Below, piece after piece: positions 59,587-64,000 of a DNA stretch of 64,000 nt; the stretch's first letter is position 1, and every line of letters starts with the position of its first letter. The stretch is from an uncultured Spirochaetota bacterium. GTDB lineage: Bacteria > Spirochaetota > Spirochaetia > SZUA-6 > Fen-1364. The stretch covers positions 96,001-160,000 of the forward strand of contig CAVTHO010000009.1 in the NCBI GenBank assembly GCA_963734545.1, read 5' to 3'. The notes beneath the pieces are model-generated. The model was not told the DNA's origin, searched no databases, and saw nothing but the letters and a program-made list of their open reading frames with translations. Position numbers and translations under genes: made by a program.

Positions 59587-60216
59587 CTACAGCGAGCGGC
59601 AGAACCGGACCATCTCCCGAACCGCCTCGGCCATGTTCTGCGCGTACGTGCGGCCTGAGCTCTTGCGCGGCTTGAACGAGTGGTCCCCGTCTTCCAGATA
59701 TGCCACCCGAATCGCGGCAGACAGCGTGTAGCCGGCAATCTCCTCCCGGGTCCCGAGCGTATCCCGGGTGCCCTGAAGGATAAGCGTGGGGGTCTTGAGA
59801 TCCTTCAGGTGCGCCACTCGAAGACTGGCCGGTCTTCCCGCCGGATGAAACGGGTAGCCCAGGCAGACCAGACCTTTCACACCGAGCCCGTCCGCCACCA
59901 TGCTGGCAATCCGTCCACCCATCGACCTTCCGCCAATCACCAGCTCTGACGGCGAGCCGAGCTGATCCACGACGCCGGCCCAGCAATCCTGCAGCACCTT
60001 CGGCGCATCAGGGGCGGTTCTCCTGCCCGTCTTTCGAAACTCCTGCATGTAGGGGAACTCGAACCTGATCACTTGAATGGACTCACCGACCAGCGCGTGC
60101 GCCATTTCTTCCATGGGCGGAGAGTCCATGAGCGACCCGGCTCCGTGCGCAAGAACCACGCGCAGCCAGGGCTTCCCGGCTTCCGGGGTGTCGATCAGCA
60201 AAGGTACAGTACTCAC
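59587..60216 (-). CDS. Alpha/beta hydrolase (KANL3/Tex30-like)
   Basis: LAHGAG, FEFPY, GGRSMGG, LGYPFHP, QGTRD, DGDHS; GGAGGAGG RBS. Confidence 0.88.
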   Translation of the reverse strand: MSTVPLLIDTPEAGKPWLRVVLAHGAGSLMDSPPMEEMAHALVGESIQVIRFEFPYMQEFRKTGRRTAPDAPKVLQDCWAGVVDQLGSPSELVIGGRSMGGRIASMVADGLGVKGLVCLGYPFHPAGRPASLRVAHLKDLKTPTLILQGTRDTLGTREEIAGYTLSAAIRVAYLEDGDHSFKPRKSSGRTYAQNMAEAVREMVRFCRSL

Positions 60217-60280
60217 GCAGCCTCCTCCGCGCCTATGGCCCCGGTGCCCGCAGTCACTTACATTGGACTGGGAAACAGGG

Positions 60281-62245
60281 ATGGCTATTGAAGAATATCG
60301 CCGCAAAAGAGACTTCAGCAAAACACCCGAACCCGAACCGGGAAAGCTGGACGTCGGGGGAAACAGGTTCGTCGTCCACCGGCACGAGGCGCGCAACCTC
60401 CACTATGATCTGCGGATCCAGGCGGGAGGGGTCCTGTCCTCCTGGGCCGTGCCGAAAGGATTCTCATACGATCCGGTGGACAAGAGGCTCGCGGTAAGGA
60501 CCGAGGATCATCCGCTCGAGTACACGAGCTTCGAGGGGGCCATTCCGCGCGGCCAGTACGGCGCCGGTACGATGCGCATCTGGGACGTCGGGGAATACGA
60601 GGTGCGGAAAGCCCCCGACATCCATAGAGCAATCGAGAAGGGAGAAATCAAGCTCGAGCTGCGGGGCCGGCGATTGCGCGGGGAATGGCACATGGTGCGC
60701 ACCAAGGGGGGCGAAGGCAGGGACTGGCTGCTTTTCAAGGCCCGGGATCGCTACGCCGGGTCCGGTAGCGACTTGTTCGGAGGCGCGGACATGAGCCGGG
60801 CAATCCAGAGACCGCCGCTCGGCAGGATTGCCCGAATGGAAGCCTCGCCCTGGCCGCTGCCCTTCGATGACCCGGACTGGCTTTTTGAACCGGCGCTGGC
60901 AGGGAAGCGCGTGCGCGCGTCGATCGACGGCCCTTCGGTCAGCATCCGGGCCGGGGCGGAAGACCTTGCCCCGGAGCTGCCGGCCGTTGTGGCGGATCTG
61001 GGGAAAATACGCGCGGAGACGCTGCTCTTCGATGGTGTTGTCGTCACGGGCGAATCAGCGCCTGTTCTGTACGTCTTTGACGTGCTCTACGCCGAAGAAT
61101 GGGACCTGAGGCAGCTCGCGCTCCGGGAGCGCAAGGCCGTCCTCCGTTCGCTCCTGCCGGACCTGAAATGCGTATTCCGGGTCGACCCGGTGGCCGAGCG
61201 CGGCTCGGCGCTCGCACAGGCAGCCGCCGAATCGGGGCTGTCGGCGATTCTGGCCAAGCGCGCGTCGAGCAGATATCAGGCAGGACTCTCGGAGGACTGG
61301 CGGCACATACCGGTTACCGCGGCAAAGACCCGGAACCAGGCCAGGAAGCCTCCCCGCCCGGCCGAGTTTGCAATAACGAATCCCCGCAAGGTGTACTGGC
61401 CCGAGCAGGGATACACGAAAGGGGACCTGCTGGCCTACTACGAGCTGACCGCGGGCTGGCTCCTCCCTTACCTCAAGGACCGCCCCCTGCACATGTACAG
61501 GTGGCCGGATGGAATACGGGGCAAGTCGTTCTATCAGAAGCAGCTCCCCGAGGGAATTCCCGACTGGATCGAGACGGTGGATGTCGCCAAGGCTGGCGAG
61601 GAGCCGACGCACTACATCGTCTGCAACGACCGAAGGACGCTGCTGACCCTCGTGAACCTCGGGACCATAGACATTCATCCCTGGCTTTCCCGCAGGGGCA
61701 GCCTCGATTCTCCGGACTGGGCGATCCTCGACCTGGACCCCAAGGAGGCTCCATTCTCGAATGTGATCAAGGTGGCGCGCGTCGTCGGCAAGCTCCTGCG
61801 GGGGCTCGGCCTCGAGGCCTACCTGAAGACTTCCGGCTCCACCGGGCTGCACGTCTGCATCCCGTTGAAGCCCGGCTACACCTACGAGCAGAGCCGCATG
61901 TTCTGCGAGGCCGTTGCGCGGCTCGTTGTGCGGGACCATGGTGACATCGCGACCGTGGAGCGCGTCATGAGCCGTCGCGGGGGCCGGGTCTACGTGGATT
62001 TCCTTCAGAACCGAAGGGAGCAGACGGTCGTCCCGCCGTACGTGGTGCGGCCGGTGGAAGCTGCGTCGGTCTCGATGCCGCTCGCCTGGGACGAGCTCGA
62101 AGGGGAGCTGCGCATCGAGGACTTCACGCTGGCCACGGCACCCGCGCGCATCGAGAAGACGGGAGACCTTTTTCGCACTGCCCTCGGCAAGGGGCAGGAT
62201 CTTGCGGGGGCCATCGAAGCCCTGGCGCGTTCCCTCGAGGCCTGA
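60281..62245 (+). CDS. ligD: LigD-like NHEJ protein: phosphoesterase + degenerate ligase + polymerase
   Basis: PE: YRRKRDFSKTPEP, HEARNLHYDLR, EDHPLEY; POL: ITNPRKV, LDLDP, KTSGSTGLH, YVDFLQN; ligase motifs mutated. Confidence 0.9.
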   Translation: MAIEEYRRKRDFSKTPEPEPGKLDVGGNRFVVHRHEARNLHYDLRIQAGGVLSSWAVPKGFSYDPVDKRLAVRTEDHPLEYTSFEGAIPRGQYGAGTMRIWDVGEYEVRKAPDIHRAIEKGEIKLELRGRRLRGEWHMVRTKGGEGRDWLLFKARDRYAGSGSDLFGGADMSRAIQRPPLGRIARMEASPWPLPFDDPDWLFEPALAGKRVRASIDGPSVSIRAGAEDLAPELPAVVADLGKIRAETLLFDGVVVTGESAPVLYVFDVLYAEEWDLRQLALRERKAVLRSLLPDLKCVFRVDPVAERGSALAQAAAESGLSAILAKRASSRYQAGLSEDWRHIPVTAAKTRNQARKPPRPAEFAITNPRKVYWPEQGYTKGDLLAYYELTAGWLLPYLKDRPLHMYRWPDGIRGKSFYQKQLPEGIPDWIETVDVAKAGEEPTHYIVCNDRRTLLTLVNLGTIDIHPWLSRRGSLDSPDWAILDLDPKEAPFSNVIKVARVVGKLLRGLGLEAYLKTSGSTGLHVCIPLKPGYTYEQSRMFCEAVARLVVRDHGDIATVERVMSRRGGRVYVDFLQNRREQTVVPPYVVRPVEAASVSMPLAWDELEGELRIEDFTLATAPARIEKTGDLFRTALGKGQDLAGAIEALARSLEA

Positions 62246-62262: not shown

Positions 62263-63474
62263 TCAGTCGTCCGGATCGTCCCTCCCCTTGTACCTGATCA
62301 GGGTGAGGTGCATCTCGCTAGGAAACGCTTTGAGGCATTCCGCTCGATGAGGGAGCGCCTTGTCGTGCTGACCCGTGCGGGAGAATATGATTGCGAGATT
62401 GCAGTGCGCATCCGGATAGCGGGGCTCGAGGGACAGCGCGGTCTGGTAGGCATGGATCCCCTCGTCATGCTTGCCAATTGCCACCAGGCAATTGCCCAGA
62501 TTGTTCCACGCCTCCGCGAAACCACGATCGGCATCGATAGCCTGCAGGTAACGCTCCGCCGCGTCCGCCTCGCGTCCCAGCTCGTAGAGAACATTTCCGA
62601 GGTTGAAGAGCGTTTCCGGATCTGGTTCCGCTTCGAGGGCCCGGCGGTACGCATCCGCTGCCCGCTGAAGATCGCCGCGCTCCTCGGCCTCCACCGCCTC
62701 GGAAAACCACCGGCTGTGGCTCTGGTCGCCTTCCGGGAAGATGGACACGCGGGGAGATGTCATCTCCCGCTCCGTGTCGAAATCCATGAGCCTCTGGCCG
62801 CTGGGCTCGGCCCAGCCTCCATCCAGCAGCCGGATGCGCAGCCCGCTGTCATACGCCTCGAGACGCCCGGCAATCTGTTCTCCATCCGGCACCCACTGGG
62901 CGATCTCGGAGAGGCTCTGGCGCAGCAGCGCGGTGGAGACTCCGGATGCCGTCAGCCGGCCGAGGTTGCGCGCAAGCAGGATGTCCTTGAACTCGAACCA
63001 GGCCAGCCGATTGGCCACGCGCGCGGGAGGGAGCAGCCCTCGGCGCATCCAGCTGCGGACCACGGAAAGGGGCTCGTCCACGATGCGGCCCACCTGGGCC
63101 GCGGTGTACATTCGGGAGATATCGCTCAATTCTCCTTCGGCGCCGATCAAGGCCAGGAACTCGGCCTCGTCCACCAGCCGTATGGGTGCCCCCTGTTTCT
63201 TCAGCTCGCGGAAGCGCAGCATGTTGCGCGCAATACCCCCGTCCGGCGTGAAGTGCCCCGTTGCCTGGCCCGCTATGAGAAGCTCCGTGGTGGTCCCTGG
63301 CTCGCGCACGGGGCGGCCGCCGGCCCGGGTGATCCGCTGGACCGCCTCTGCCCTGTCCATGGAGACCAGACGACCGGTGAGCGCCACTTCCCTGCCGGCG
63401 AGCGATTCCTGAGGCGGCACTTTTTCCCTGCGCGGTACCCCGCGCATTTCTTCTTCCGTCACGACGTCAGGCAT
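62263..63474 (-). CDS. BRCT + MerR-type HTH + TPR protein
   Basis: LAGREVALTG...GG...IRLVDEAEFLALIG (BRCT); YTAAQVGRIV...VRSWMRRGLLPP (HTH); LFNLGNVL, AWNNLGNCL, AHCNLA (TPR). Confidence 0.85.
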   Translation of the reverse strand: MPDVVTEEEMRGVPRREKVPPQESLAGREVALTGRLVSMDRAEAVQRITRAGGRPVREPGTTTELLIAGQATGHFTPDGGIARNMLRFRELKKQGAPIRLVDEAEFLALIGAEGELSDISRMYTAAQVGRIVDEPLSVVRSWMRRGLLPPARVANRLAWFEFKDILLARNLGRLTASGVSTALLRQSLSEIAQWVPDGEQIAGRLEAYDSGLRIRLLDGGWAEPSGQRLMDFDTEREMTSPRVSIFPEGDQSHSRWFSEAVEAEERGDLQRAADAYRRALEAEPDPETLFNLGNVLYELGREADAAERYLQAIDADRGFAEAWNNLGNCLVAIGKHDEGIHAYQTALSLEPRYPDAHCNLAIIFSRTGQHDKALPHRAECLKAFPSEMHLTLIRYKGRDDPDD

Positions 63475-64000
63475 CCAGAAGCCCCTCGAACACGGGTGCG
63501 CGAAGCAATCCCGCTGAGGTGAGCTCAGCGAAGCTTACCGCGCAGAACAGGCCCGGCTCAACCCACCTCGCGCGTTCAGGGCAGGACACGAGCGGCGTGT
63601 CTCTCGGCCGCTGTCTCAGGAGCGTGTTGATCCTTTCGCGGACCCCTTCGGTGAAGCCGCCCCCCACTCTCCCGACATAGCGAAGCGCACCTTCCTGCTC
63701 TCCGGGAAGGCCGTTGCTCGCCACGAGCAGGCTCTGGAAGTCATCGCCATCCTTCTCGATATATCCGATGATGGCAACGTGGACCTGGAGCCGCCGCTTG
63801 AACTTCACCCAGGCGCCGTTGCGCTTTCCCGCCGCGTATGTGCTGGAGAGGCGCTTTGCCACGACTCCTTCAAGGCCCTGCTCGCAGGCCATCCGGTACA
63901 GCATCTTTCCTTTGGCGCGGACCCCTTCTGAAAGAATCACGCCCGGACACGGGGAATCCTTCATGATCTCTTCGAGGACCCCGCGCCTTTCGGAGAACGG
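63467..64000 (-). CDS. Stand-alone ATP-dependent DNA ligase, C-terminal part (runs off right edge)
   Basis: GLEGVVAKRLSSTY, WVKFK, OB domain YVGRVGGGF...WVEP...LRAPVFEGL; frame open to window end. Confidence 0.88.
   Translation of the reverse strand, partial: PFSERRGVLEEIMKDSPCPGVILSEGVRAKGKMLYRMACEQGLEGVVAKRLSSTYAAGKRNGAWVKFKRRLQVHVAIIGYIEKDGDDFQSLLVASNGLPGEQEGALRYVGRVGGGFTEGVRERINTLLRQRPRDTPLVSCPERARWVEPGLFCAVSFAELTSAGLLRAPVFEGLLDA

Follow-up and report, generated by a model that had tools for sequence, protein, structure and literature searches.

LigD is the textbook all-in-one enzyme of bacterial end joining. In the type known from Pseudomonas aeruginosa its domains run in the order 3'-phosphoesterase (PE), ligase (LIG) and primase-polymerase (POL), and in Methanocella paludicola Lig, Pol and PE are stand-alone proteins. 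This work concerns a LigD-type protein of the first kind whose ligase domain appears to have lost its chemistry. The gene lies at 60281..62245 on the forward strand of a stretch of 64,000 nucleotides from an uncultured Spirochaetota bacterium (positions 96,001 to 160,000 of contig CAVTHO010000009.1, assembly GCA_963734545.1), which we call the window. We refer to its 654-residue product as P0001 and to the altered ligase domain as psiLIG. We will argue that psiLIG is a folded nucleotidyltransferase (NTase) domain kept by selection without its catalytic residues, and that the sealing step in this lineage is very probably carried out by another protein.

The three-domain form of LigD has been studied in depth, and PMC8656161 describes the domain order of LigD as varying between species. 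Against the three-domain PE-LIG-POL enzyme, P0001 has the same domain order, PE and POL domains that score above the NCBIfam cut-offs, a homologous NTase domain and a gene linked to Ku. Unlike that enzyme, its central module has no Lys nucleophile, no Glu in motifs III and IV, neither Lys of motif V and no OB domain. Split or "nonconventional" gene sets for non-homologous end joining (NHEJ), with LigD domains on separate proteins, are described by Sharda et al. 2020 (PMC7719229); the survey classes systems by the presence or absence of domains, and its accessible part makes no mention of inactive ligase domains. Like those systems, the locus described here encodes the ligase as a separate polypeptide by Ku and the end-processing domains apart from it. 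Unlike them, P0001 still has, between PE and POL, a ligase domain that persists as a folded pseudo-enzyme.

A third comparison is with a laboratory mutant. A ligase-dead mycobacterial LigD is said to support end joining while LigC seals in trans (work attributed to Akey et al. 2006 and Aniukwu et al. 2008), and if so the arrangement is the same as the one we propose for P0001. The mycobacterial protein is reported to be a point mutant with its other motifs and its OB domain intact. P0001 instead represents a natural, lineage-wide state with many substitutions, a lost OB domain and a dedicated LigD-type ligase. Our literature search, which covered the main text of openly available papers, found no description of a conserved, catalytically dead ligase domain in a LigD-type protein.

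Loss of the ligation chemistry

psiLIG occupies residues 186-345 of P0001 (160 residues; 60836..61315, forward strand). We aligned P0001 with 106 database hits (alignment A1). The alignment holds a Lys-less family of 93 rows (P0001-P0095, about 90 protein clusters) and 14 Lys-bearing hits with an OB domain (P0096-P0109), which we call true LigDs. The motif strings of P0001 share columns with the K.DG.R, DGE, G.EG..AK and W.K.K of the true LigDs, and the true LigDs carry the catalytic residue in 14 of 14 rows at each of the following positions. Motif I survives as WLFEPALAGKR (residues 200-210, 60878..60910), with Ala205 (codon GCG, 60893-60895) in place of the AMP-accepting Lys and Ala207 in place of Asp. 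The Lys column holds Lys in 1/90 family rows (P0083 only) and Ala in 56, and the Asp column holds Asp in 5/90. Motif III reads FDGVVV (from residue 250, 61028..61045), where Val253 replaces a Glu found in 0/92 family rows. Motif IV reads GLSAILAK (from residue 319, 61235..61258), where Ser321 replaces a Glu found in 2/92. Motif V reads DWRHIP (from residue 339, 61295..61312), where His342 and Pro344 stand for both Lys; family rows keep the first Lys in 3/92 and the second in 0/92, with Pro in 67.

The OB domain is absent from P0001 as well, because only 27 residues part motif V from POL, against 120-190 in true LigDs; the spacing is 25-58 across the family. A short linker (residues 346-371, 61316..61393) stands at the expected place of the OB domain, residues 348-360 of it have a predicted local distance difference test score (pLDDT) below 50 in the full-length AlphaFold2 model, and a Pfam search gave no match to the OB domain (PF04679) in P0001. 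A sequence-only reading of the window had described the two Ala substitutions in motif I, the degenerate motifs III, IV and V and the missing OB domain. The alignment columns agree with that description at each point, and neither close nor distant homologues restore the KxDG of motif I.

Other parts of the domain are kept. The motif I residues E203, G208 and R210 are present in 90/90 family rows. D251 of motif III is kept in 91/92 (P0001 retains D251-G252) and W340 in 91/92. Motif IIIa is retained as VLYVFDVLY (from residue 262, 61064..61090), with F266 in 87/92 and D267 in 92/92 family rows, and K326 of motif IV is kept in 90/93; these three residues are also present in 14/14 true LigDs. The Pfam ligase domain PF01068 matches P0001 below threshold over residues 258-340 (23.2 bits against a cut-off of 26.2). 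Judged from its sequence, P0001 lacks every catalytic feature of an ATP-dependent ligase while having the features of the fold and of PE and POL. Without a nucleophile, the Glu residues of motifs III and IV, either motif V Lys or an OB domain, it should be unable to perform the ligase reaction as known.

In the subclade that holds P0001 (with P0004-P0007, P0034 and P0036) about 25 residues of the form ALDxxGxPSxxALxxxLxxG are gone after motif III. The gap falls at about 61046-61063, and the stretch is present in other pseudo-ligases and in true LigDs. The dead ligase domain is, on this alignment, apparently still being trimmed in the P0001 subclade.

A folded domain under purifying selection

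Despite these losses the module is recognizable as a ligase NTase domain by several methods. A profile of 15 orthologous modules (alignment A2) matches the Mycobacterium tuberculosis LigD ligase structures 6NHX, 6NHZ and 1VS0 with an E value of 4e-14. The match runs from profile positions 38 to 203 and chain residues 20 to 184, covering all of the NTase part but nothing of the OB domain. The isolated module searched against the PDB as a single sequence gave insignificant matches only, the best being PurE (E 0.01). In the full-length AlphaFold2 model of P0001 (mean pLDDT 89.1, predicted template-modelling score (pTM) 0.80) the module has a pLDDT of 87-96, and a domain-only model gives 81-96 for residues 41-190. 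The top Foldseek hits of the module are all NTase domains of ATP-dependent DNA ligases at a probability of 1.00, and include human LigIV, archaeal ligases and M. tuberculosis LigD (1vs0_B, root-mean-square deviation 2.8 over 168 columns). Its ESM Atlas features fall in ligase adenylation-domain clusters at 0.92. The module, as modelled, is a folded and complete NTase domain.

Selection on the module was measured as the ratio of nonsynonymous to synonymous substitution rates (dN/dS) by the NG86 method. The comparison used 11 orthologues and the 55 pairs among them, of which those with dS below 2.5 were kept; 51 pairs were usable for psiLIG. psiLIG has a median of 0.199, PE one of 0.138 and POL one of 0.114. 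Between the window and locus L004, which are the closest pair, the psiLIG value is 0.102 at a dS of 0.94, and the maximum over the 51 pairs is 0.398. Among the 15 orthologues of A2, 59 columns of the module are invariant. psiLIG is under purifying selection, and its evolution is not neutral. The Ala codon is also not peculiar to one assembly. Contigs from 3 of 4 wetland-metagenome runs, 95-99% alike, cover 60893-60895, and no difference is listed for them between 60878 and 60932; contigs from other runs agree with the window at that codon.

Distribution and origin

Among species-representative genomes, modules more than 50% identical to that of the window come from 14 Spirochaetota species known as metagenome-assembled genomes (MAGs), and the matches at or below 39% identity are all ordinary LigDs of other phyla. 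We also searched 60 relatives of the window genome. The module is present in 17/20 genomes of the same genus and in 18/24 of the family, and two other families of the order have it in 2/2 and 7/7 genomes. In another family 1/8 genomes (G460) has a weak match that a stop codon interrupts, and the remaining four families among these relatives gave no match to the module. In 400 other genomes of the phylum, evenly drawn, there were 8 matches, all weak, the best with an E value of 1.2e-9. The module is conserved across an order-level lineage of Spirochaetota, in three families, whose members are spirochaetes of soil and wetland.

One weak match outside the order deserves description. In a genome of the same phylum and another order, an open reading frame (ORF) of 693 residues (G208:C52:8909-10684) has a weak pseudo-ligase-like match at 31% identity and adjoins a ligase ORF of 307 residues on the opposite strand. 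The pair could be another case of the split arrangement, in a different order.

In a careful tree of 70 NTase domains, built by maximum likelihood, 33 pseudo-ligase modules fall in one clade with support of 100/99, apart from all Lys-bearing LigD domains. The pseudo-ligase family has a single origin in this phylogeny. Two other LigD-like proteins have degenerate ligase motifs, P0164 (761 residues, WMWEPCIAGTR) and P0144 (893 residues, WCFEPKLSGTR and FDGVIV); one protein in the P0164 cluster carries a name from Usitatibacter. In the same tree both form long branches outside the spirochaete clade. They are placed separately among true LigDs and therefore look like independent losses of ligase chemistry.

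The end-processing domains and the gene model

The domains on either side of psiLIG look catalytically intact. PE (residues 4-156, 60290..60748) matches PF13298 with an E value of 3e-41 and TIGR02777 with 200.5 bits (cut-off 144), and has H35, H41, D43, R45, E75-D76-H77 and Y81. POL (residues 372-654, 61394..62242) matches PF21686 with an E value of 3e-87 and TIGR02778 with 248.7 bits (cut-off 214.7), and has D484, D486, the SG..G.H pattern, D573, Q576 and N577. In A1 the PE pattern HxH...HYDLR with EDH..Y is kept in at least 81/82 to 84/84 family rows, and D484, D486, D573, Q576 and N577 of POL are invariant across 84-88; taken together, the catalytic residues of the two domains are kept in at least 81/82 to 88/88 rows. 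The sequence-only reading was right that PE and POL keep their catalytic residues. Whole P0001 scores 311.7 bits against the DNA ligase D equivalog TIGR02776, below its cut-off of 373.2, and the match is in two pieces and leaves out most of the ligase part.

The long ORF around the gene spans 60077 to 62245 on the forward strand. We place the start at the ATG at 60281 (MAIEEYRRKRDF) and not at the upstream ATG at 60077, since the frame of four orthologous loci (L005, L006, L011 and L016) reaches no more than two codons upstream of that Met, the first residue of MAIEEY. Positions 60281-62245, stop codon included, translate as DDPDWLFEPALAGKRVR. Among the orthologous loci, L013 has an in-frame stop at the border of psiLIG and POL (L013:10001-10603), where the source annotates a 367-residue PE-psiLIG protein (P0075), and L015 and L017 have frame breaks in the POL region. 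These may be assembly errors or real splits.

The stand-alone ligase and Ku

Beyond the pseudo-ligase gene, on the opposite strand, come a gene for a BRCT/MerR/TPR protein that we describe below, a stand-alone LigD-type ligase and Ku. The ligase gene, encoding an NTase and an OB domain, enters the window with its 3' part (63467..64000, reverse strand) and runs off its end; Ku follows. The full gene, seen on L003, encodes 287 residues with intact motifs (FKWDG, LDGE, EGVVAK and WVKFK) and an OB domain, and from its likely start it scores 228.6 bits against TIGR02779 (cut-off 227.75). It lies in the Ku operon, 1.2 kb from the pseudo-ligase gene, and is the only other match to PF01068 in the window genome. 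That genome has one Ku, which scores 255 bits against TIGR02772. With Ku and a competent-looking LigD-type ligase nearby, the locus has what marks Ku-dependent NHEJ.

The two kinds of ligase domain occur together. In a set of 61 related genomes, that of the window (G000) included, 28 carry the pseudo-ligase, and 28/28 of these also have another ORF whose ligase match exceeds the Pfam cut-off; for genomes without the pseudo-ligase the figure is 1/33. Ku was found in 26/28 and in 0/33 respectively. We give these counts as a description and not as a statistical test because the genomes are kin. Of 14 related loci, 10 show the stand-alone ligase and 5 show Ku. Both invariably lie downstream, on the other strand, and where either is not seen a contig or flank end cuts the locus short.

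In the careful tree the stand-alone ligase sits among the NTase domains of true LigDs, with sister-group support of 85/86. A clade uniting pseudo-ligases and stand-alone ligases is not rejected by the approximately unbiased test on that tree (p 0.218), nor against a poorer quick tree (p 0.919). The stand-alone ligase may come from duplication of the internal domain or from a separate acquisition.

The linker and the BRCT/MerR/TPR protein

The linker between PE and psiLIG (residues 157-185, 60749..60835) carries a clade-specific motif, RYAGSGSDLFGGADM, that is invariant in 15/15 close orthologues. True LigDs lack this motif, and so does the distant pseudo-ligase clade, where RDRYAR...FFDL takes its place. 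The linker is predicted to be disordered, with a pLDDT below 50 in the domain-only model. To us RYAGSGSDLFGGADM looks like a short linear interaction motif, and its DLF core may resemble clamp-binding peptides.

The gene between those of P0001 and the stand-alone ligase encodes a protein of 403 residues (P0003; 62263..63474, reverse strand), and its start overlaps the stop of the ligase gene. Pfam and NCBIfam models give it a MerR-type helix-turn-helix (HTH), four tetratricopeptide repeats (TPRs) and a probable BRCT domain. The BRCT match reaches only 15 bits in Pfam. In NCBIfam the protein matches the C-terminal part of a DnaQ-type model with an E value of 8e-8 and, more weakly, the C-terminal part of LigA models; the regions matched in both carry BRCT domains. 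The gene is present in 11/14 related loci and adjoins the ligase gene wherever the ligase is seen. In 66 canonical LigD loci of other phyla there was no match to the N-terminal 250 residues (0/66). The family comprises 99 clusters whose names go no further than "tetratricopeptide repeat protein" or the like. A complex prediction of P0003 (alignment A3) with the linker and psiLIG (A2) scored 0.00 in two runs made without controls, which speaks neither for nor against a contact. P0003 may be a regulator or scaffold of the NHEJ system and is a candidate for a new accessory factor.

Interpretation and alternatives

We consider it very probable that this is a split NHEJ system in which P0001 is the end-processing subunit, sealing occurs in trans and the dead NTase domain is kept for a non-catalytic role. 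P0001 would descend from a LigD of the PE-LIG-POL type, whose ligase module would have lost all the residues of nucleotidyl transfer and the OB domain while staying a folded NTase-like domain. Ku would hold the ends, PE-psiLIG-POL would trim or heal them and fill them, and the stand-alone ligase of the Ku operon would seal them. The dead NTase domain would act as a rigid spacer between PE and POL, as a surface for docking or for binding DNA ends, or as both. The sequence-only reading had called the domain a retained pseudo-ligase scaffold. A retained pseudo-ligase is what the family-wide losses, the agreeing contigs, the unconserved Lys of AGKR, the selection and the co-occurring stand-alone ligase support, and "scaffold" is an interpretation added to them.

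Several roles for psiLIG are candidates. As a rigid spacer it could preserve the geometry of PE and POL in the three-domain LigD, and the pTM of the full-length model is compatible with this. Residual non-ligase activity is another candidate, and a docking surface is a third. On the last, the accessible part of PMC13717202 describes how the C-terminus of M. tuberculosis Ku touches LigD both in POL and in the NTase part of the ligase domain (D522, K579 and L580). We mapped these residues by hand on the profile alignment, where D522 and K579-L580 fall on A245 and A286-V287 of the pseudo-ligase, within stretches that are conserved. Unlike the contact in M. tuberculosis LigD, a Ku contact of psiLIG is only a lead from hand mapping, since true ligases, too, conserve those stretches, for reasons of structure.

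Some observations weigh against the split system as we describe it. Both the inactivity of the domain and ligation in trans are read from sequence and models. The nucleotide-pocket residues E203, R210, F266 and K326 are retained, and nucleotide binding or some non-ligase chemistry is therefore possible. Ku was not found in G412 (97% complete) or G447 (88% complete). Linkage is not obligatory either, since in the complete genomes G456 and G459 the genes for Ku and the ligase are paired a long way from that of the pseudo-ligase. Among the 24 runs listed, none is an RNA run that holds the gene.

A more elaborate version of the split system would be a four-component NHEJ machine made of Ku, the stand-alone ligase, PE-psiLIG-POL and the BRCT/MerR-HTH/TPR protein as a scaffold. 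In it psiLIG, without catalysis, would sense breaks or serve as a docking platform, coupling processing to the trans ligase. We think it unlikely in this full form. If true, bacteria would have an equivalent of the non-catalytic scaffolding known from eukaryotic NHEJ.

The best of the alternatives, though still an improbable one, is that the dead NTase domain keeps a ligase-independent 5'-deoxyribose phosphate (5'-dRP) or apurinic/apyrimidinic (AP) lyase and cleans abasic ends before the stand-alone ligase seals them. There is a precedent in the accessible text of PMC4770248. In the isolated ligase domain of Bacillus subtilis LigD, the 5'-dRP lyase survives the substitutions K24A, K189A, K206A, K208A and E184A, and the lyase does not use the active site of ligation because activity survives those mutations. 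psiLIG is also well folded and under selection, and it has one nearly invariant Lys, K326. However, that part of PMC4770248 does not identify the lyase nucleophile of the ligase domain, which leaves no residue to look for in psiLIG. The main lyase activity was later assigned to Lys331 of the POL domain, according to the accessible part of PMC6547435, and the B. subtilis construct included the OB domain that psiLIG does not have.

Much weaker is the argument that the module is still a ligase and uses another Lys as its AMP acceptor. The two that come to mind are K209 of AGKR, which lies four residues from the canonical position, and K326, with its high conservation. The K209 column is Arg in 48, Lys in 23 and Thr in 7 of 90 family rows, with other residues in the rest. 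It is not conserved, and the idea of a shifted nucleophile, a possibility to be checked since the first description of the domain, is therefore removed. K326 is the ordinary Lys of motif IV, which is not the nucleophile in the true LigDs that share it. Motifs III and IV have also lost their Glu residues and motif V both its Lys, and the OB domain is gone. We give this explanation very little credence.

It is hardly more credible that the module is a decaying relic, a neutral spacer or a sequencing or assembly error, for although psiLIG evolves somewhat faster than PE and POL, the P0001 subclade has lost its further residues and one MAG (L013) has a stop at the end of the module, dN/dS is far below 1 in all usable pairs, invariant columns persist among the orthologues, the module is kept in some 90 clusters and in three of the families that make up the order, its fold is predicted with confidence and independent contigs agree at the Ala codon. 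The sequence-only reading had likewise dismissed random decay and sequencing error, and the family-wide losses, low dN/dS and agreeing contigs uphold it in this.

Conclusions

We have described a member of the LigD family that carries a pseudo-enzyme domain and is encoded in a four-gene NHEJ locus specific to its lineage. Public names do not reflect this. NCBI gives the Lys-less proteins P0022, P0050 and P0068 the name "non-homologous end-joining DNA ligase", and JGI has "bifunctional non-homologous end joining protein LigD" for 33 of the 106 listed hits; P0069 and others are Lys-less yet publicly named NHEJ ligase or bifunctional LigD. We argue from their motifs that the Lys-less proteins so named should be unable to ligate, and that the names are annotation errors. 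Surveys of NHEJ that score the presence of domains would count them as ligases.

What this means for the family is that one lineage has kept the body of the ligase domain without its chemistry and, as we read it, handed sealing to a separate ligase, which would surprise specialists in NHEJ somewhat. psiLIG is a natural experiment on what a ligase domain may do other than ligate, whether through geometry, docking of Ku or DNA, or lyase activity. It would be a clean system for those roles, with no competing ligation.

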